Below are positions 28,948 to 62,009 of a stretch of 64,000 nt of DNA, one piece after another. The DNA comes from Trichodelitschia bisporula (Eukaryota). The position numbers and the translations under genes were made by a program. Position 1 is the stretch's first letter, and every line of letters begins with the position of its first letter. The stretch spans positions 433,322 to 497,321 of the forward strand of contig ML996690.1 in NCBI GenBank assembly GCA_010356995.1, given 5' to 3'. The notes below the pieces were generated by a model, which searched no databases, was not told the DNA's origin, and saw only the letters and a list, made by a program, of their open reading frames with translations.

Positions 28948-31509
28948 TTAATCAAGCTCCTGGTCGAAAACCTCCCCCTCCCGCGTCTCACCCGGCGGCA
29001 ACTCCATCCCCCCCTCAAGCGACAGAATGATGTTCTTCGCCGACGGCGACGGCGCAGACGAGCCATCCGGAAGCTCACCCTCCTTGTTCAGTGTCAACTT
29101 TGTATTCGTCGTCTGCACGCCCAGAATCCGGTCCGCACCCGCACTAGCCTCCACTTCCATCCCCTCGCCAAACGACCCCACAGCATGCGTAGCAGCCCTC
29201 GACTCCCCAGGCGTAGCAGCGGGGACGAGCTCCTCGCGGGCAGTAGCAAGGAGATCGATGCCAATCGCAGCGACGGGAGCAGGTTCGTTGACGATATCCT
29301 CCATGGAGGCGACGATCTCGGCGGCGTGCGAGTTCACTGCTTCGAGCCTCGCTTCCTGGGACGCTTCGTGCGAGAGCACGGTTCCGATTTCCGGCAGGGG
29401 GTTGGAGTTCTCGAGATCCAGTTCGAGGCCTGGAGAGGGCGGGGCAACGGATTCGGCAGCGGGTTCTATGCCGGGCTCGACGGCAGACTCTACAGCGGGC
29501 TCTGCGGCGGGCTCCGGAAGGCTGGACGTCAACGGCGCCTTGTCAGGTACGAGCGTGTGCTTGACGGGTCCGGTGCTCGTAGGGGCGGCGGCGAGAGGCA
29601 GGGTGTGCTGTGCAGGTTCAGTCTTCACGGGCTCTGGTTTTGCGGGTTCGTCGGCTAGCAGCTCAGAATTGACGGGTTGAGCCTTCTCCAGTACAGGTTT
29701 CTTGACGCTCTTGGCCTTCGGGGCCGGCTCCTTCTTCGCGTCAGACTTAGCGGCCTTATCCTCCCGCACCGACGCCGCGCTCGATGCCACCGATGTGCCC
29801 AGTCCCGCCGATGAAGCCGAAGCACGCAGCCCAGTAGACGGAGCCTTTTCCTTGCTCTTCCCCTTGTTCACACCATTGGCCTGTTTGACTGGCGGCGCAG
29901 CAGCCGGAGCAGAGGGCTTGCGAGGCGCAGCCCGCGGAGGTGACTTGGCGTCGAGCTTCTCGTGGACCTTGCTCGCGGAACTGGCGGTTGGACGCATCAT
30001 GCGGGCCAGGAATCCATCGTCCGCCTTCGCGGTGGTCATACTCGCAGTGCTCCCGACGGAAGGCCGCGGCTCGGCCTCCTTCTTGACCTGTGTAGTGCGC
30101 GGCGCGGGTCGACGGGTTGTCGTGCTCGTCGACCGAGCCAGAGGACCACGATCGCTGACCATGGAGGACCGGCGAGAGAGGGTCTGCGTGCGGGGTTCCT
30201 TGCCGTGCTTAGCGGCGGAGGAGGCGGTAGGGGCGATGAGGTGGCTAGGGAGTTTGATGGGACGGGTGGGAGATTTGGGGCGGGGTTTGACGAAGGGGGC
30301 GGGGGAGGGGGATGCACGCAGTGCAGCAGCGGTTTTTTTGGGCTCCGAGGTCGTAGACTTGGCGCTGGCAGATATGACGGAAGGGGTTTTGGAGGGGCGA
30401 CGCTGCTGCTGCGGGTCATGCATGTTGTTTGTGGATGATTCTCTCCGGCGCTGGTGGTCGTTCGAAGGGTTCAACCGCTCAGGAAGGGTCGAGCGCACGC
30501 GACGGACTTGCTTGGGGGAGCCGGATGTGGAGGCGTTTGCGGAGGCGTTGGTAGAAGCAACGGCGGCGGAAGAGGCGGATGCAATTGACGCTGCGCTAGT
30601 GGATTCCTTCGACACCTTTCTAGACGACTTGTAGGCGCTAGTGGGGGAGAGGTTCGAGCTCTCGGGTGCGGGAGCTGGAGCTTGTTGCGGGGGCAGGTCC
30701 ACTGGTGCAGGAGCATTGTCAGCAACCTTCAATGGCTTTGCAGCAACAGCAACGGTAGAAGCAGCAACAACAGGGGGCTCCATAGGCTTCGGTTGCGGTG
30801 TGGAGATTCGAGGAGTCCATGGTGTATCGTTCGCCTTCGGCCTGAGTCTAGAGGGGGTCCGCAAGTTCTCTGCCAGAGACTGGAGGACCTCTAGAGGCGG
30901 CGAAGGGAACGCGTCCGCAACGGGCTCAGTGTTGGGAGCAATTTGAATAGCAGCAGGTGGTGCTTGAGTGGTACGGAACGCTTTACCGTCCGACGCCGGG
31001 TTACCTTTCTGGCCGTTCTGGCCATTCTGTCCATAGCTGTTCACGCCATTGGTTGTGCTGGACTTGCTAGCCTCCGCTGCAGCTTGGAGATGCGCACGCG
31101 GTGACGTCGACTGTGAAGCCGCCGACCCCGACGAAGCACCCTCCTTACCGTCCTTGCTTATGGTCCGCTTGAGCTCTGCGATCAGTGCCTCCTGCTGCTC
31201 GGTGCCAGTGCTGTCGCGCTGCGAGGCGTTGCTGCGCGTCTCTGACGTGTCTGAACGCAGCTTCACCGGCTCGACACCGACGAAATTGGCGCGGACCTTG
31301 GAGACAGGGCGCGACGTTGTAGCTTCGCCATTGGCAGGAGTTCCCGCTTCAGCTCCCGCAGCAGCTGTTGGCGCCGAGGGAGTAGAAGGCGCAGTGACGA
31401 GCTGGCGACCGCGAGGAATCGGAGGGGGAGGAGTTGGTGACGCGGGCTCGGAGTTTTCATATAGAGCGCGCAGCGAGCGGATTTTGCCCGCGCTCACCGG
31501 GTTGGCCAT
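28948..31509 (-). CDS. Pro/Ser/Ala-rich largely disordered protein (about 853 aa)
   Basis: Long intronless ORF; first ATG at 31509 (MANPVSAGKIRSLRALYE). Motifs PRPKSPTRPIKLPSHLIAPTASSAAK and FLARMMRPTASSASK; acidic C-terminus. Confidence 0.75.
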   Translation of the reverse strand: MANPVSAGKIRSLRALYENSEPASPTPPPPIPRGRQLVTAPSTPSAPTAAAGAEAGTPANGEATTSRPVSKVRANFVGVEPVKLRSDTSETRSNASQRDSTGTEQQEALIAELKRTISKDGKEGASSGSAASQSTSPRAHLQAAAEASKSSTTNGVNSYGQNGQNGQKGNPASDGKAFRTTQAPPAAIQIAPNTEPVADAFPSPPLEVLQSLAENLRTPSRLRPKANDTPWTPRISTPQPKPMEPPVVAASTVAVAAKPLKVADNAPAPVDLPPQQAPAPAPESSNLSPTSAYKSSRKVSKESTSAASIASASSAAVASTNASANASTSGSPKQVRRVRSTLPERLNPSNDHQRRRESSTNNMHDPQQQRRPSKTPSVISASAKSTTSEPKKTAAALRASPSPAPFVKPRPKSPTRPIKLPSHLIAPTASSAAKHGKEPRTQTLSRRSSMVSDRGPLARSTSTTTRRPAPRTTQVKKEAEPRPSVGSTASMTTAKADDGFLARMMRPTASSASKVHEKLDAKSPPRAAPRKPSAPAAAPPVKQANGVNKGKSKEKAPSTGLRASASSAGLGTSVASSAASVREDKAAKSDAKKEPAPKAKSVKKPVLEKAQPVNSELLADEPAKPEPVKTEPAQHTLPLAAAPTSTGPVKHTLVPDKAPLTSSLPEPAAEPAVESAVEPGIEPAAESVAPPSPGLELDLENSNPLPEIGTVLSHEASQEARLEAVNSHAAEIVASMEDIVNEPAPVAAIGIDLLATAREELVPAATPGESRAATHAVGSFGEGMEVEASAGADRILGVQTTNTKLTLNKEGELPDGSSAPSPSAKNIILSLEGGMELPPGETREGEVFDQELD

Positions 31510-33587
31510 TGTGTCGTCGAAATCGGAGTCGTATTGCGTACTAGGGAGCTCGTGTGCTGACGGGATTCGGTCTTGTGTGGAGAATTGGGGCAAAGAGTGG
31601 ATAAGGGCGAGGGGGCGCGCGCCGGTGTGTACGAGTAGGAGGGTGGTTGTTTAGGTTGCGGCGCAGGAGATTATTGTCGACGACTGGGGAGAAGAGGGGG
31701 TGGTAAGTTGTTGCAGGGAGGGTATTTCGGTGGGCGTGGCACGCTGTCCCGTGCTTTACGGTGCAACGCTGCGGATGCGCGCGCCGCTGAAACGCGTTCT
31801 CTGGGGTGCTTTCCTGGCCAAGCTTGATGAGAGGGAAGCAAGCCGACTGTTCGTTAGCAGGGGAGCGAGGATGACGGCCAGGGGATATAGGGAGGGCGGA
31901 CATCGGGAATAAATAGAAGGAGCAAACTCACTAGAATTACACTAGAGATTGTCGCGATGAAAGGAGAGTTGGAGATGGTTGGCTCTGAAGTCGACAAGTC
32001 GCTTCGTTCGGAAGGAAGATGAGCTTGGTGGCCTCTGCGCACTCCCACAAAAATCGCTTGCTTTTTCGCTCGCCCCGACGACGAACAGCTGGCCAAAGGG
32101 GGTGATGATCACTCAAGTGTGGAGAACAGAGATGACAGCGACAACTCGACGACGACGACGACGGCTTCATTCGCTTTACGACTTGAGACGCTCTGTATAT
32201 CTGACCTTCCCCCCCTTCTCCCTCTCTCGCCACCACTCCCCTTTAATGTAGCTCCCGTGCACCACCTTTCACCGCTTCATTGGCACGGCTCTTTCCTCGT
32301 GAAGCAAATCATGATTGTTTATCCCCTCCTGACCCCTCGCCCTTCAACAAACCCCCCGTTGGCTGGCCGTCCAGGCAACCGCGTAACACCCGCGTCGCTG
32401 TACAACTTTCTTGCTCTGTAGCACCCGAAGCAACAATGCTGCCATCCGAATACTTCAAAGACATGATGGGATCCGACAGCATGGCGAGTATCATCATCAA
32501 TTTTCCTCGGGGCTCGGTTCCGTAATTCCCTAGTTCTAGTTCTACTTGTGACGTGTCCCGAAGCCGGCGTCACCCGCTGATGACACTGCATCTCCGAAGC
32601 TTCAGATATAGATGGACTGACCACTACGGTATTCTCCTTTGCCATTAGCCGCGCCTGTGGGTCCGGCTTCTTGGTCAATTCTCTGATCAATTGCTTGCCG
32701 GTTTAGTTCCATCTCGGCACGTGTGGTTGCTTGTCGTCTTGCTCCCGTGACTCCCTCAAGGTTCCAAAGCCATCGCTAACTTCCACAACTCTCCTATTTA
32801 TCCATCTGCCATTCCTCCTTCGGTGCTCCCGCTCACCTGTCCAACAAAGTCTACTACTTCTTAGCGATCAACTCGCGTCTCGTGTATTAGCAACGGCGAA
32901 TCAAATCGGTTCGAGCCTTCCAATTCTCTCCCGCCACCTTGGGTGCTACGGACAACCAGTATTCCCTAGTACAAATGCTTCCTTCCATTGATCGTGGTAC
33001 CGCCGCCTATGTCATACCCCGCTTGACAAGCGCGGTGCCACCACTATCCAGGTTTCCCAATGTGTCGGCGGACGGCCTGGGCCATGAAGCTGAACTAGGG
33101 GTGTCAGTACTGACGATCACGTCCTATCTTAGCACTGCAAGGCTGGAAAGCCTTCTAGAGACCTGCAGCTGGCACCATACTACTCTTCTGAACTCACTGC
33201 AGTTCTCCACGCAGCGGTATGGTGATTTGGGCATTGTGGCAGTCTTGAAGACGAGATATGCAGCATCACTGGAATGAGTGGTATGGTCGTCTGGGAGCTA
33301 CCCCGCGGAGAGCTGCCCCAACATGTTGGGAGAGGAAGGAACCACGCGACATAATGGCGCGATGATGATGGACATACCGGTACAGTCTTCGATCACAGGC
33401 AGCCGATTGGACAAGTGTTCGAGGTCTCCGCAATTCACCCTTGAAGGTTCGTGTTACCCGCTTGCAGAAAACCCCGTGGAATATAGGAAGAGACTGTATT
33501 ACATGTACATCGTGTCCAGGCCAACACACTTTTCTGGTGATAACTACTTCGTCATTATGAATACGAGCAACAGGACATGGATTTCTG

Positions 33588-35060
33588 TTAATGTGACGGC
33601 CTCGACATCCCCCCGGAAATCGGATTCATCACCGACAGCTCCGTCGCAGCTTTCCTCGCCCCCCGAAACACCGTATTCCCGTGGACCATCAACGGAAACA
33701 CCGCCCAAACCCAGAAGCATGACACAAGCAGCATGGCACCAGTCAGACGCATCTCCACCAAGACTGTGGCTCCGAGGGCATATATCCAGTTGAGAATCTG
33801 GCTCTGGAACTGAAACTGCGGCTCGTGGCTGTTCTCGTGCTGCTCAATCGCCTCCACAATCCGCCATGCGACTCGGTTGTTGATTTTCTCCCATGTCGTA
33901 TGCTCGGCCGTCACCCGGCCAGCCGTCGACATCTCTTCGCGTAGGCTGGGGTCGCTGGCAAGCAGCTTTGTATGCGCGACGAAGGCATCCAGGTTCTCGG
34001 GTTCAATCAGGAAACCCGTCGTTTGGTGCCGGACTATCTCTGACGGCCCTCCTTCGTTCCGTGCAACGACCGGAAGACCGCACGCCATGGCTTCGAGAAC
34101 AACGAGGCCAAATGTTTCGGTTATGGAGCAGTGGCAGAATACATCAGCGGATGCGTAGGCACGAGCGAGGTGTGCGCCTTCGAGGAAGCCTGTGAAGATC
34201 ACTCGATCCCGGATAGGTGTAAAGTAGCTGCGGACTTCATTTTCCACCGCGACATTGCGATTGCCTCCGACGATGACAAGCTTGAAGGGTAATTTCTGCT
34301 CAGCTAGACGGATCGCCGCCTTTGCTAGGAATCCGAACCCCTTTTCCGGTGCAAGCCGGCCGACGCAAAGCAAAATGATCTCTCCTTTTGGTGCCAGTTG
34401 CCGTCGGTAGCGTTCGTCGCGAAATTCCGGGTTGAAAACGCTGGTGTCCACTCCGCGGCCAAGATGCATCAGCTTGTCTTTTTGCACTCCGGCTTCAACC
34501 AGGTAATTGGCGATAGGTGACGAGGGATAAAATATGGTCTGCACCGAACGGTGGCTGAACAGGTACCCCTGAACTACCTGCAGCATCCAGACTGCGTAGC
34601 GATCGAGCGGCGCCGGAAAGATGATCTCGCTGTAGGCCGACAAATCTGTTTGGAAGTTGGCAATGACTGGTGCTGGGTCCGTAAAGCAGCGCATCTGAAG
34701 CATGGCCTGGAAACCAACGGACGCCGGGCTCGCCAGATAGACCAAATCTGGCTTGAACCTCGCGCTGATGCGATCGAGGCGGAACGGATACGCCACCGAC
34801 AGCTCGGGGCTGTACGGCAGCGACAGCCCTCCGAGGCGCCGGACCGGGCCTACTGGCAGAGGAGGCCGCGACTTATCGCCGACGTAGTGCGGGGCAACGA
34901 TCTTGACATCGACGCCATGTTGCTGGAGATACTGAATGAGGCTCGTGGTCGTTCTGCTCACGCCGTTGATGGGCCCGATGGACTCGGTTGCAAGTAGCAC
35001 CTTGCGCCCGTGCAGACTCTCAGGAAACAGGTATTCACCGGAGCTCGAAAAGTGATCCAT
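33588..35060 (-). CDS. GT4 (GT-B) glycosyltransferase, SQD2/MgtA/Agt-like
   Basis: First ATG 35060. KVLLATESIGPINGVSRTT, LGRGVD, VGRLAPEKG, and E-x7-E motif ETFGLVVLEAMACGLPVV. Hydrophobic C-terminal segment. Confidence 0.88.
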   Translation of the reverse strand: MDHFSSSGEYLFPESLHGRKVLLATESIGPINGVSRTTTSLIQYLQQHGVDVKIVAPHYVGDKSRPPLPVGPVRRLGGLSLPYSPELSVAYPFRLDRISARFKPDLVYLASPASVGFQAMLQMRCFTDPAPVIANFQTDLSAYSEIIFPAPLDRYAVWMLQVVQGYLFSHRSVQTIFYPSSPIANYLVEAGVQKDKLMHLGRGVDTSVFNPEFRDERYRRQLAPKGEIILLCVGRLAPEKGFGFLAKAAIRLAEQKLPFKLVIVGGNRNVAVENEVRSYFTPIRDRVIFTGFLEGAHLARAYASADVFCHCSITETFGLVVLEAMACGLPVVARNEGGPSEIVRHQTTGFLIEPENLDAFVAHTKLLASDPSLREEMSTAGRVTAEHTTWEKINNRVAWRIVEAIEQHENSHEPQFQFQSQILNWIYALGATVLVEMRLTGAMLLVSCFWVWAVFPLMVHGNTVFRGARKAATELSVMNPISGGMSRPSH

Positions 35061-35289
35061 GGTGGAATGCAGCTTGCCAACGAGGAACGAAGGGATCAAT
35101 ACGGATGCGTTCGTGCCCGCAAGCGCACGCCATAGACCGCAGAAGCAGCATTTTGAGCAGATCCGAGGTCGCAACCTGCACACACAGCCGCGTCTCTTTC
35201 CGCTCAAATTGTATCACGCAGGGTCGGCGGATGAGGTTCGCAACTGTGCGCGTGGTTGACTATGGGCGCGAATGGTGGTGCAAGGCTCT

Positions 35290-35298
35290 CCACGTGGG
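35290..35298. promoter_or_regulatory. CACGTG E-box (CCACGTGGG), candidate Pho4/NUC-1-type site in the shared GT4/UGD promoter
   Basis: ctcCACGTGGGgt in the 639-bp divergent intergenic region. It is a single site and could be a chance occurrence. Confidence 0.35.
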
Positions 35299-35699
35299 GT
35301 TCGGACGAACAAAGCCTTGCGTGGCTGGCTGGCCAATCTTCAACCTGGTCGCTGCTATCCGCCTGCGTTCCCGTCCGCAATTGGCCCGTTTCGCATCGAC
35401 TGCCAACCACCATAGAGGCGCGGGGAGTCGCGCACTGCGCAAAACATATCGCTATGCGGCCGGTAGCCTCAACTCTCCCTGTCTTTGCTTGGGTTGAACC
35501 CCTCGGCGCGCGTGATGGAGTGCGGTGATGCTAGTCTCGTATCGCCGCACCTGCAGGGCAGCGGCAGCGCGACATTCCCTGGATGTACGCAGTGACAGAT
35601 CGAGTGGGTGATTAGAGATGGCCGTTTGTAGCCCTTTTCCTCGCGCTCCTCTCCTCCACTCCTACAACTTCATTGAAGTCGTACCTCGCAGCTTCAAGC

Positions 35700-37699
35700 A
35701 TGGATCCGGCACCCTTCCTCTCAGACCTGTCCGATGAAGGCTCCCTCGAATATTCCGACTTCAGCACACCGGAGGGGAGCCCGAGTTTGTGCCCGCTTTC
35801 GAGCGAAGGGACTCTGGAGTCGAACTATATGGCTGTAGATGACCTTTCAACTTCATCCGTAACACTTCGTAAGACTGGATCTGCTCCTCAAGACGACGTG
35901 CCTGTGATCCGCAAAGTATGTGTTATTGGTGCTGGCTACGTTGGTGAGTTCAAACCGGCAATTGCGTTTCCTTTCCTCTCTTAGTCTAAGATGATCTTCA
36001 TATTGCATCCACTGCTGAGCAATCAGACATTTAACAACATTCGCAGGTGGCCCAACAGCAGCCGTCCTTGCGCTGCACAACCCGCACATCGACTTCACCG
36101 TTCTCGACCGAGACCCCGCCCGTATCCGCCGCTGGAATTCCGGTCACCTTCCCATCCGCGAACCAGGATTGTCTGAGGTCGTCCGAGTCGCGCGTGACGG
36201 GTACACCAGCGACCCTGAACCGCTGGTGCAGAATCTCCGCCGGATAGATTCGAAACTTGACGCCCAGGACTACCAAGCTTCAGACCGGAAACCGAATCTG
36301 ATGTTTAGCACCGACACGCCAACCGTTCTTGCCGACGCCGACCTGGTATTCCTTGCGGTAAATACTCCGCCCAAAGCCACTGGCATAGGAGCCGGGGCCG
36401 CGAGCGATCTTTCCGCGCTGGAAGGCGCGGTCGCCGACATTGGGAAGTACGCGAAGGCGGGCACGATTGTTGTGGAAAAGAGCACGGTGCCCTGCGGAAC
36501 CGCACATGTGATAGAACAGCTCGTAAGCTTCCACATATTTCCTATCCATAAATCAATGCCCCTAACCCCCTCAGCTTTCTGCCTCCCGGCCCCAGACCCC
36601 TTTCTCCATCCTCTCCAACCCCGAATTCCTCTCCGAAGGCACCGCGCTCCGCAATCTCCTCCACCCCGATCGAATCCTAATCGGCGCACCTCGGACGCCC
36701 GCCGGCGCCCAAGCGACCCGCGCCCTCACCGCGCTCTACACACCCTTCATTCCACGCTCCAAAATCCTAGCCATCGACACCCGTTCCGCCGAGCTCGCCA
36801 AGCTAGCAGCCAACGCGTTCCTCGCCCAGCGCATCAGCAGCATCAACAGCCTGTCCGCGCTCTGTACCGCCACGGGCGCCGATGTGCACGAGGTCGCCGC
36901 AGCCGTGGGCGCAGACGCGCGTATCGGACCCGCGTTCCTAGGCGCTGGACTCGGGTTCGGCGGCTCCTGCTTCGGGAAGGATATCGCGAGCCTGGCGCAC
37001 ACAGCGCGCGCGCTGTACCTCCCAGACGTGGGCGCGTACTGGGCGAGCGTGCTGGAAGTCAACGTGGGGCAGCGGGTCCGCGCCGCGGGGCGCATTATCG
37101 CGAGGCTGAATAACAGCCTTGTGAGGAAGAAAGTGACGATCCTGGGGTTTGCGTATAAGAAGGGCACGGGCGATACGCGTGACAGCCTTGCGGTGCAGAT
37201 TGTGAGGATTTTGCTTGCGGAGCGCCCGGCTGAGATTGCGATTTTTGACCCCGCGTGTAGTCCGGCGGGGATTGAGCGGGAGATTGAGGGCCTGGGGCAT
37301 GAGGGACGGGTTAAGGTGTATACCGACCCGTACGCCGCGTGCCGCGATGCTAATGCGTTGCTTGTCGTTACGGACTGGGACATGTTCCGCAGTGGGTCAG
37401 CGGCGCGGGGAACGTATACGCTCGGGCCCGACGCCGGGGCGGTGCCGATACGGGCGGATGACAGCCGCATAGCTGTAGTGCCGCGCGGACACACCCTCGG
37501 CTCGGCGCCGGCGTGCGCGGATGAGTGTCCGGAGTGTGCGGCGCAGCGGGCAGATGGAGGTGCGATGGGCCGGCTGGATTGGGCGCGCGTGGCATATCAT
37601 CTTGCCGAGCCCCGATATGTGCTTGATGGGCGGGGAGTGCTGGGGAGGGAGGAGATGGGGCGGTTGGGGATTGAGGTTGAGGGGTTGGGGTGGGGGTAG
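35700..37699 (+). CDS. UDP-glucose 6-dehydrogenase
   Basis: Introns near 35944-36046 and 36523-36574. VIGAGYVGGPT, LPIREPGL, AVNTP, VEKSTVP, SNPEFL, AELAKLAANAFLAQRISSIN, catalytic GFGGSCFGKD, LGFAYKKGTGDTRDS, DGRG. Confidence 0.92.
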
Positions 37700-37937
37700 G
37701 GAAGGGGAGGGGAGTGAAAGGTGGTTTGGAAGGGGAGGGAGTTTGGTTTATGGGATGGGAGAGGTGGGATTTCATGGATCAACTCCATGTGGTCGTTGGT
37801 GTGGTGCATAGGAGACCAGGAGCGTCCGCCTCCGAGTAATCAAGTTCCGAAGTAAGCGATTCGCCTTTCAACAGTTACAGTGAAGTATCATGGGCCCCAT
37901 CAGCCTCACCCGGCACAGTATCCCACACTCCATGACC

Positions 37938-38960
37938 CTAGATCTTCGCCGCCGCCCTCGCTTTCCCCCGCCAGCCACTCCTCGTCGCACCACCATCCAA
38001 CTCAATCACGTTGCCAGTCATATGGGCCGAGCCCAGGGAGCTGAGGAACAAAATCACGCCCGCAAAATCACTCGGCTTGCCAATCCGCCCCGTCGGCTGG
38101 CCCGCCGTAAGCGTGTCCTCGAACTTCTCAATGCCGAAGCTCGTCATCCGCGAGGGGAACACGCCACTGCCAGCGTCAGCACTCAACCAAAACCGAGAGC
38201 GCTATGGGGGAACCTACGGGCACACGCAGTTAACCATGATGTTCTTCGGCGCCAACTTGCTCGCCTGAATCCGGCTGAGATGCACACACGCCGCCTTACT
38301 CGGGCCATCTGTCCTCGTCAGTCTACCCTCAAACACCACAAGGGGCCCACGTACAGCTAAACGTCCCATGCCCCGGCGCACTCAGACCCCCACTCTCCGT
38401 ACTCGTAACATCCCCCGTCATAATCGCCGCCATACTCGCAATATTAATAACCCTGCTCGGGGTATCCGGGCTCGCCCCCTTCAGCAGCAATGGCTCCAAG
38501 CCAGCCGTCGTGTAAAAGATAGACTTGACATTCAGCGCCATGATCTTGTCCCACCCGCTCTCCGGGAAATCATCGTAGGGCGCGCCCCATGTCGCGCCAC
38601 TGTTGTTCAGTAGCACGGTGAGGCGATCGGTGCGCCGCTTGGTCTCGGCGACGAGCGCGTCGCAGCCCGCGCGGTCTTTGAGGTCCGCGACTATGTACTC
38701 GCATTTGCCGGGGCCGAGGGCGTTGAGCCGGTCTGCCGTCTGGGGGCCCGCGGGTTAGCTGCTATGTTTAGGTTTTGCGGAGTGTAAGGCACCTTCTTCA
38801 ACTCGCTCTCCTTGCGAGAGGCAATGATGACGCGCGCGCCGTTCTGCACAAACGCCTGCGCGGCCATTTCGCCTAGCCCCGAGGCCCCGCCCGTCACCAG
38901 CGCGATGTGGTTGCGGAAGTCGAAGAGGTTGGAGACGTGTAGGTTGGTGGTAGAGGTCAT
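37938..38960 (-). CDS. Short-chain dehydrogenase/reductase (RhlG/FabG-like), multi-exon
   Basis: ALVTGGASGLG, IIASRK, LLNNSGATWG, INIASMAA, YGPSKAA in the spliced frame, PGVFPSRM, GNVIELDGG. Confidence 0.88.
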
Positions 38961-61085: not shown

Positions 61086-62009
61086 CCGACGAGGGGAGAG
61101 CTGGGCGCGGTTTATTGGCAAACGAAGAGGTGGTGGGATGGGGAACTTGCGAGGCCGGGAATGCGATGGATACGGGCCACGTGGGGCCGCTTGATGGACG
61201 GGAGGAGCCGCTAGGCTAGTTCGAGGGGAAGCGAGGCGCTGTCTAGCACTTCAACCTTTTGCCAATGTTGGTCTGTTGACGACAAGTTGTGGAGTTTGTG
61301 GATGGACAATCGTTTCTCCTCGATGGGGATGAGGCCTTCCCTTCGCAGTTGGAATGGCCGCACGCTCCCGCGGGCTCAATTATTCCACGGTACTGTATGT
61401 TTCTCGAGTCCAGCGCTGACGACATGATGCAACATGACTGATACGATGTCGTCTGCTCAACTCCAATCGAGCCTTCAATCCAGCACCAGGACGCTTGCTA
61501 ACACCCATCTCACACATTATCCGGCCACCCCTTCCACAGAATCAACTACGTATCTCCTCCATCAGAACAGTCTGTATGCCCCCTCTGTCCCTCACTGCGC
61601 TGCCAAACTCCCACCCAAAACCATGACCGCCACTCCGGCATCCTCCCGAGCCTGTTTATGCTCGAGCCCTGGTCAGTCTCGATATCCCGTACAGCACCTA
61701 CGACGTGGGCATAGATGACGCAAGCAGCGTGGGCGATGCACATGGATGAACAACCGGGTATATCCTCCAGCGAAGTCTTCGTCTATGAACTGATCAGTCG
61801 GTAGGAGAACTTGATGCCCCGTAGCATGTGGCTGTGTCTCCTTCAATCTCGTCCTCCTCTCCGCGCCCAACAGCTCACAGCCTCATTCTTGGCATTCTGC
61901 CCCGCAGTTGAGCTCAGCTCGAAGCCCCAAAGCCTCGCCTTTAATCTCCAGTTCCACTCCTGCATTTTCACAAGTCCGCAATTTCTTGACTAGCATCATT
62001 ATTTCCAAG

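Follow-up and report, generated by a model that had tools for sequence, protein, structure and literature searches.

What do a GT4 glycosyltransferase and a UDP-glucose 6-dehydrogenase (UGD) achieve together when they are encoded head to head around a single control region? The question is raised by positions 33588 to 37699 of a 64,000-nucleotide stretch of Trichodelitschia bisporula DNA (contig ML996690.1; the whole stretch is called the window below). An earlier annotation made from the letters alone, here the sequence-only reading, had proposed that the two genes supply donor and transferase for a phosphorus-free anionic membrane lipid made under phosphate limitation, and had named conservation of the linkage and of a CACGTG motif across ascomycetes as a check. 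Our analysis supports the biosynthetic part: the pair probably forms a two-gene donor-plus-transferase unit for alpha-glucuronosyl-diacylglycerol (GlcADG). This reading is well supported but anticipated, and the pair itself is already described in print. Chen et al. (2014), in their section on the pair, described conserved UGD and glycosyltransferase genes, linked them to the acidic glycolipid of Aspergillus fumigatus of Fontaine et al. (2009) and reported UGD1 to be essential for this glycolipid (PMC4059230). The claim of the sequence-only reading that no genetic description existed in fungi is corrected by that work.

The GT4 gene is an intronless open reading frame (ORF) on the minus strand (33588..35060, stop codon counted), which encodes 490 residues and carries the donor-binding motifs GRLAPEKG and HCSITETFG...E. 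The UGD gene model on the plus strand consists of three exons and encodes 614 residues. Exon 1 (35700..35943) contains a non-conserved N-terminal extension and the start of the GAGYVG NAD-binding motif, exon 2 (36047..36522) the NAD-binding domain (Pfam PF03721, 9e-25), and exon 3 (36575..37699) the central and UDP-binding domains (PF00984, 9e-30; PF03720, 2e-18), with GGSC at 36959-36970 and approximately 70 extra residues near the C-terminus. The start codons are 639 bp apart, and the region between them (35061..35699, no strand) was wholly covered by RNA-type contigs. The G+C content of the window is 53-62%, and the DNA is fungal-looking.

The contigs originated from two public runs of one sample, both labelled 'RNA?' as a guess only and with the growth condition unrecorded. 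They were taken as transcript-derived because three GT..AG introns were skipped: the two UGD introns of 103 and 52 nt, which were skipped exactly (the first by a joint of 35942/3 to 36046/7), and a third one in the next gene. Both GT4 and UGD are transcribed, and the contigs confirm the UGD gene model. Coverage extended over 33000-35521 and 35493-37634, with an overlap of 29 bases between the contigs of the divergent genes, and in one run both genes were assembled in a single contig of 4663 bases (window 33000-37635). Since the contigs span the whole 639-bp spacer, the CACGTG E-box within it is present in RNA as well. Strand and transcript ends are not given by the contigs, and RNA across the spacer could stem from long leaders or from divergent transcripts that overlap. 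The head-to-head arrangement with its spacer and motif, as described by the sequence-only reading, is confirmed by coordinates, Pfam domains and contigs.

The linkage was followed in metagenome contigs, which were scanned with a 12-sequence fungal GT4 alignment and yielded 76 fungal loci. UGD was located by tblastn with the window UGD, and near-identical loci were collapsed to 62 clusters. UGD was found upstream of GT4 and on the opposite strand in all 39 loci holding UGD. Of the 29 non-redundant clusters that extend 2500 bp or more upstream of GT4, 25 had a linked divergent UGD, corresponding to 32 of 39 at the level of loci; for an upstream extent of 3500 bp or more the figure was 22 of 25 clusters. 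To this extent the linkage, whose conservation the sequence-only reading had named as a check, was conserved. UGD-linked loci occurred in every subclade of the GT4 family tree. The clade without named rows represents Sordariomycetes, and the relatives of one such locus (L051) come from Xylaria, Hypoxylon, Fusarium, Metarhizium, Trichoderma, Colletotrichum, Lasiosphaeris and Sporothrix. Judged from these loci, the pair is conserved across Dothideo-, Eurotio- and Sordariomycetes; Saccharomyces cerevisiae is not known to carry either gene. Besides GT4 and UGD, the window flanks gave no match to the other loci, and no flank gene family was common to more than three of 31 linked loci. As far as the compared loci extend, the pair is a strict two-gene unit with no third conserved gene. 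The strictness of this conservation argues that the GT4 would be the main use of UDP-glucuronate (UDP-GlcA) in these fungi.

The UGD is, by its domains and closest relatives, an intact, eukaryote-type enzyme. Its exons hold the N, central and C domains of the Pfam UDPG_MGDP_dh families, and the catalytic cysteine is located within GFGGSCFGKD, as expected from the GGSC motif that the sequence-only reading had noticed. The protein scored 205 bits against the NCBIfam model NDP-sugDHase (cut-off 189.8), and its best solved relative was human UGDH with 286 bits, compared with 164 bits for the best bacterial UGD. It has no signal sequence. The N-terminal extension (35700-35942) of about 70 residues is acidic and Ser-rich, has no Pfam match and is not conserved: most tblastn matches in other loci begin at residue 66-82. 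The approximately 70 extra residues near the C-terminus (about 37390-37590) include the sequence CADECPEC.

The GT4 matched the Pfam domains Glycos_transf_1 (3e-42) and Glyco_transf_4 (3e-20), both above cut-offs. The donor-binding motifs GRxxxEK and E-x7-E are present as GRLAPEKG and ETFGLVVLE, and the residues R235, K240, E315 and E323 were invariant in the 12-sequence alignment. The N-terminus has no signal peptide-like character. The hydrophobic C-terminus, already recognised in the sequence-only reading, was confirmed as a probable membrane anchor (33678..33797 on the minus strand, approximately residues 422-461): Kyte-Doolittle values exceeded 1.6 for windows starting at residues 428-443, with a maximum of 2.06, and W450, A453, V454, P456, L457, H460 and G461 of this tail were conserved in the same alignment.

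A search of 1.84 billion representatives returned 318,590 relatives of the GT4. Close relatives (52-67% identity) were confined to filamentous ascomycetes, with Verruconis and Venturia (Dothideomycetes) nearest and Aspergillus, Penicillium and Chaetothyriales among the other named relatives. Beyond the fungal family the scores fell to about 170 bits at 28-38% identity. Two of the top 150 matches carry the source name sulfoquinovosyltransferase; among the proteins related to them are one of the diatom Seminavis, named 'Sulfoquinovosyl transferase SQD2', and a Phaeodactylum protein. In a FastTree phylogeny of 80 rows, the fungal proteins formed one clade (support 1.0, stem 0.9) with a bacterial GT4 group as sister (support 0.926), in a sister relation and not in a nested one, and the 12 SQD2-type rows formed a clade of their own (support 1.0) with no fungal row. 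The profile-profile scores of the fungal GT4 were 549 (E 8e-75) with the bacterial sister family and 402 with SQD2. Individual proteins of the sister family scored 130-171 bits against the window GT4, at an identity of about 28-33%, and the algal SQD2-type proteins, next in order, 142-151 bits. We conclude that the fungal GT4 is a clade of its own and that its nearest relatives transfer glucuronosyl and sulfoquinovosyl groups to lipids.

The SQD2/MgtA/Agt-type kinship proposed in the sequence-only reading therefore stood in part: the closest relatives with a characterised or annotated function put anionic sugars on lipids, and none of the three named assignments fitted the protein itself. Homology to SQD2 is clear, but the protein lies outside the SQD2 clade. 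The best solved relative by sequence, PimB' (2e-18), which we take to be the solved relative closest to MgtA, matched over residues 197-398 only, that is the generic C-terminal domain, and MgtA/PimB'-type similarity over the full length was not observed. The signature motifs of Agt/GTcp, GRVAxEKN and FPSxTDTFG (PMC8231724), are absent from the fungal GT4, which has GRLAPEKG and HCSITETFG instead; two bacterial paralogs (L157, L158) hold both signatures and scored 95-99 bits against the window GT4. The best NCBIfam match, GlcN_PG_synth, reached 126 bits at a cut-off of 480 and was not used as an assignment. The ESM Atlas returned generic GT4 clusters only, both for the fungal GT4 and for protein P0267. 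Within the A. oryzae/A. flavus GT4 cluster, the Aspergillus oryzae protein P0139 has 1013 residues, about twice the normal length, and is possibly a gene-model fusion.

The bacterial sister family consists of proteins of 383-395 residues and was found in nearly every genus of the Sphingomonadales, as well as in Hyphomonadaceae, Caulobacteraceae, Rhodothermales and Balneolaceae. According to one study, glucuronosyl-ceramide synthases of Sphingobium, Zymomonas and Novosphingobium (Sgt1a) have 392, 394 and 383 residues, and the identities in its Table S8 resemble those in the sister family (PMC13318209). Novosphingobium and Sphingobium members shared 73% (Table S8: 68.9%), Novosphingobium and Sphingomonas members 62% (Novosphingobium-Zymomonas in Table S8: 62.3%), and a Novosphingobium and a Caulobacteraceae member 46% (39.5% with Caulobacter Sgt1 in Table S8). 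Identity to the adjacent second GT4 was 24-27% (Sgt1a and Sgt2 in Table S8: 23%) and to the Agt-like paralog 27-32% (Sgt1a and Gta1: about 25%). A paralog of 54% identity in one of three Novosphingobium genomes fits Sgt1b. In Caulobacter, Sgt1 puts a hexuronic acid on ceramide and its neighbour Sgt2 supplies a hexose; the two are members of the PhoB regulon (PMC6445935). Because lengths, identity pattern, taxon range and gene order agree, the sister family most likely comprises the glucuronosyl-ceramide synthases (Sgt1/Cer-GlcAT). An old transfer of the fungal GT4 gene from bacteria is plausible, as a suggestion only, because the sister group is bacterial and the fungal gene has no introns.

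The gene neighbourhood of the bacterial sister genes (26 ORFs in 6 of 8 selected loci) was variable and contained no phospholipase C or pho-type gene. A second GT4 directly after the Sgt1-like gene, found in three of the six loci (L145:5995-10738 from a Balneolaceae member, L079 and L126), was the sole recurring feature. In L145 it is followed by a class I/II aminotransferase that matches serine palmitoyltransferase in size and by a GNAT protein, which may point to a glycosphingolipid cluster in Balneolaceae and Rhodothermales.

Taken together, we propose that the cytosolic UGD would oxidise UDP-glucose to UDP-GlcA, while the tail would keep the catalytic domain of the GT4 at the cytosolic membrane face with diacylglycerol at hand. 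As a member of a retaining family with GT-B fold, the GT4 would then attach glucuronate through an alpha linkage to a membrane lipid, with diacylglycerol as the most likely acceptor, to give GlcADG. The two genes would be transcribed divergently from the shared control region, where one basic helix-loop-helix (bHLH) factor probably sets both through a conserved CACGTG(GG) E-box. We hold UDP-GlcA to be the donor with high confidence, and diacylglycerol to be the acceptor with somewhat better than balanced likelihood. To our knowledge, GlcADG is the only known glucuronic-acid (GlcA) lipid of ascomycetes. GT4 enzymes retain the anomeric configuration, so that UDP-alpha-D-GlcA gives an alpha-glucuronoside. 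The expected product matches the lipid of A. fumigatus, which contains alpha-GlcADG (PMC3586718; PMC8150115). Of the proposal in the sequence-only reading, the two-gene unit for a GlcA lipid is supported by transcription, conservation and lipid-transferase kin, but its novelty was already taken by Chen et al.

The regulatory half of the proposal depends on the control region. The spacer in the window contains a single CACGTG, inside CCACGTGGG (35290..35298, core CACGTG 35291-35296, no strand), a candidate bHLH site of Pho4/NUC-1 type; Pho4 has a preference for a GGG flank. With 12 copies of CACGTG in the 64-kb window, about 0.12 would be expected per 639 bp, and taken alone the window site is weak evidence; its weight comes only from conservation across loci. 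(The only other copy of CCACGTGG in the window is located at 61177.) The promoter set comprised one locus per linked cluster (31) and, for each, the stretch between the GT4 and UGD protein matches. CACGTG occurred in 20 of the 31 stretches, against an expectation of 6.4 based on the remaining sequence of these loci; 300 dinucleotide shuffles gave 10.5 on average and never more than 19. The loci share ancestry, however, and motif counts are not independent events. Among 2078 hexamers CACGTG ranked first in enrichment, and ranks 3 to 5 were taken by words containing CACGT and ACGTT. Enriched octamers included CACGTGGG, found on either strand in 11 of 31 stretches, and CACGTTGC in 10. Either CACGTG or CACGTT was present in 30 of 31 stretches, CACGTT being common by chance. 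The distance between the CACGTG sites and the beginning of the GT4 match was 156-808 bp. Two studies report that Pho4 binds both CACGTG and CACGTT (PMC10437122) and that the Neurospora crassa consensus sites are GCACGTG for NUC-1 and GGCACGTGA for the repressor NUC-3 (PMC12506109). With CCACGTGGG in the window and CACGTG in 20 of 31 loci, a Pho4/NUC-1-type site as in PHO-regulon promoters is present by sequence, and the E-box is likely, by its conservation, to be functional.

Phosphate starvation is a reasonable candidate signal because GlcA lipids rise under phosphate limitation in other organisms and because of the E-box. GlcADG of Arabidopsis under phosphate depletion requires SQD2 (PMC3586718), and GlcA lipids rise upon phosphate limitation in Agrobacterium and SAR11 (PMC8231724), in Caulobacter (PMC6445935) and in Mycobacterium tuberculosis. 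In N. crassa, the 'glycosyl transferase' gene NCU00244 was up 4-fold after 4 h without phosphate, was lower in the nuc-1 deletion strain (PMC12506109 Datasets S1, S2) and has a NUC-3 peak in DNA affinity purification sequencing (DAP-seq; PMC12506109). NCU00244 could be an unlinked Neurospora ortholog of the GT4; our literature search found no paper on this gene. The main text of a phosphate study on Fusarium graminearum (PMC4790934) has no mention of glucuronate, UDP-glucose or a glycosyltransferase, and no report on a phosphate response of fungal GlcADG was found in the literature searched, with subscription journals and bioRxiv supplements outside it. Overall, induction of the pair by phosphate starvation is possible but rather doubtful. 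Even less likely, in our judgement, is the wider scenario of a PHO-controlled switch across Pezizomycotina, in which anionic phospholipids are replaced by GlcADG as the acidic counterpart of diacylglyceryl-trimethylhomoserine (DGTS), the GT4 having been acquired in the ancestor from a bacterial Sgt1-type synthase and then coupled to the host UGD via a bidirectional E-box promoter.

Several observations, in addition to the shared ancestry behind the motif counts, weigh against the proposed unit or its phosphate control. Four of the 29 informative clusters (L011/L012, L036, L051 and L054/L072) have no linked UGD, and L046 has none although the near-identical L040 does. A UGD was present within 6 kb of the bacterial sister gene in only 2 of 80 loci, the identity of the sister family with the published Sgt1a/Cer-GlcAT enzymes is inferred, and this nearest bacterial family probably acts on ceramide and not on diacylglycerol. 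The literature searched, with the bounds given above, contained no enzyme assay or knockout of a member of the fungal GT4 family. The RNA-type contigs cross the E-box, so for the GT4 the site may lie in a transcribed leader. In N. crassa, NCU08228 ('UDP-glucose dehydrogenase') showed a log2 fold change of -1.0 after 4 h without phosphate, independently of nuc-1 (PMC12506109 Datasets S1, S2), and NCU04936 ('UDP-glucose 6-dehydrogenase') one of -0.2, unaffected in nuc-1 and nuc-3 mutants (PMC12506109); the two genes were chosen by their UGD annotation and may not be orthologs of the window UGD. NCU08228 is repressed by NUC-3, with a 6-fold de-repression upon deletion of nuc-3 (PMC12506109). It is located beside a GT2 gene and probably belongs to the separate cluster of dehydrogenase and chitin-synthase-like (GT2) genes of Chen et al.; NCU04936 has no transferase neighbour.

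The alternative that survives best concerns the regulator. A bHLH factor different from the phosphate activator may recognise the E-box, for instance a repressor resembling NUC-3, a factor of Cbf1 type or a regulator of lipid metabolism, with GlcADG being constitutive or otherwise regulated. The pair was found in RNA-type contigs of runs without a recorded growth condition, and the A. fumigatus lipid was reportedly isolated from ordinary mycelium. CACGTG is common to many bHLH factors, NUC-3 binds GGCACGTGA (PMC12506109), and neither of the two UGD-annotated Neurospora genes was induced at 4 h without phosphate, both having NUC-3 DAP-seq peaks (PMC12506109). The occurrence of CACGTGGG in 11 of 31 regions and the enrichment of CACGTT-type words fit Pho4-type sites, and the rise of GlcA lipids under phosphate limitation in plants, Agrobacterium, SAR11, Caulobacter and M. 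tuberculosis speaks for the phosphate activator. We consider the chances of this alternative to be evenly balanced.

A second alternative keeps UDP-GlcA as donor and replaces the acceptor by ceramide or another lipid, the product being for example a glucuronosyl-ceramide like GSL-1 of Sphingomonas or the product of Caulobacter Sgt1. In its favour, the bacterial family that matches the ceramide glucuronosyltransferases best is sister to the fungal GT4, and Caulobacter Sgt1 is described as ceramide-specific, with no glycosylation of diacylglycerol lipids (PMC6445935). However, the GlcA lipid reported from a fungus carrying the pair is a diacylglycerol lipid, and the available parts of the literature on the fungal GlcA lipid mention no fungal glucuronosyl-ceramide. 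The related SQD2 and Agt use diacylglycerol, and a long stem branch (0.9) lies between the fungal and the bacterial clade. The GT4 fold as such does not distinguish between acceptors. A ceramide product is, on balance, improbable, and diacylglycerol remains our preferred acceptor.

It is very unlikely that the GT4 instead extends or decorates a GlcA lipid made by another enzyme, like the actinobacterial MgtA, or uses another nucleotide sugar, so that its linkage with UGD would reflect a shared pathway only. The lipid mannosyltransferase PimB' is its best solved relative by sequence, and the bacterial Sgt1-like gene is often followed by a second, hexose-adding GT4. The match to PimB' is limited to the generic C-terminal domain and lies far below those to the Sgt1-like and SQD2-like proteins, and with only two genes conserved, a separate transferase for the first step would need to be encoded elsewhere.

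Some fungal wall polymers contain glucuronic acid, and many family members are labelled 'glycosyltransferase involved in cell wall biosynthesis' in the source databases. A supply of glucuronate to wall polysaccharide or glycoprotein is nevertheless most improbable, since this label is a generic automatic name, every relative with known or annotated function acts on lipids, the GT4 has a predicted membrane anchor and no signal peptide-like N-terminus, and loss of A. fumigatus UGD1 was reported, in the section on the pair, as loss of the acidic glycolipid (PMC4059230).

Two further genes of the window were noted. The neighbour downstream of UGD (37860-38960, minus strand) contains the intron skipped in the same contigs (38167-38217, CT..AC, or GT..AG as read on the minus strand) and a TGGASGLG motif that makes it short-chain-dehydrogenase-like by eye; it is not kept beside the pair in other fungi. 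On the other side, an 853-codon ORF (28948-31509, minus strand) is of low complexity and rich in Ser, Ala and Pro.

Among known systems, the closest is the pair described by Chen et al. in the section available to us. HMPREF1120_03278/03277 of Exophiala (Wangiella) dermatitidis, a UGD and a 'glycosyl transferase group 1', belong to the same two families as the window pair and are likewise adjacent. Proteins from Cyphellophora and Rhinocladiella, members of the order of Exophiala (Chaetothyriales), are 55-56% identical to the window GT4 and fall into the same monophyletic family. Chen et al. found the pair in numerous Eurotiomycetes and Sordariomycetes and in a single Dothideomycete, with agreeing trees of both genes (PMC4059230), whereas the nearest named relatives of the window GT4 are Dothideomycetes. 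Their section on the pair is silent on the promoter, on phosphate, on a conserved E-box and on the relationships of the transferase.

Caulobacter Sgt1 (CCNA_00793) and the Cer-GlcAT enzymes of Sphingobium and Zymomonas belong to GT4 and attach glucuronate to a membrane lipid, as proposed for the fungal GT4, and PhoB mediates the induction of Sgt1 under phosphate starvation (PMC6445935). They differ in having no fungal-type hydrophobic C-terminal tail, a ceramide acceptor and no linked UGD (2 of 80 loci), the comparison being made via the inferred family. Agrobacterium Agt and SAR11 GTcp are GT4 enzymes as well, which make GlcA- and glucosyl-diacylglycerol under phosphate stress (PMC8231724), but they are shorter (approximately 334-355 residues), have no tail and carry signature motifs absent from the fungal GT4. 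The plant and algal SQD2 transfers an anionic sugar to diacylglycerol and is a full-length homolog of the fungal GT4 with 30% identity, but it forms a separate, well-supported clade. SQD2 is a plastid enzyme with UDP-sulfoquinovose as its main donor. The fungal DGTS synthase BTA1 likewise makes a phosphorus-free membrane lipid from diacylglycerol, as a single enzyme, and in N. crassa it is a member of the PHO regulon, induced more than 200-fold in a nuc-1-dependent manner. BTA1 is unrelated and its product zwitterionic, and phosphate control, shown for BTA1, is a hypothesis for the pair.

Compared with these systems, our analysis adds that the pair is widespread in Dothideomycetes, limited to two genes, transcribed and furnished with a conserved E-box, and that the GT4 is kin to Sgt1- and SQD2-type enzymes. 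It offers a specific, widely conserved candidate gene for the fungal GlcADG transferase together with a conserved promoter element. GlcADG is an antigen of natural killer T cells and a phosphate-sparing anionic lipid in plants and bacteria. If the phosphate link fails, the pair would still define a route to GlcADG.

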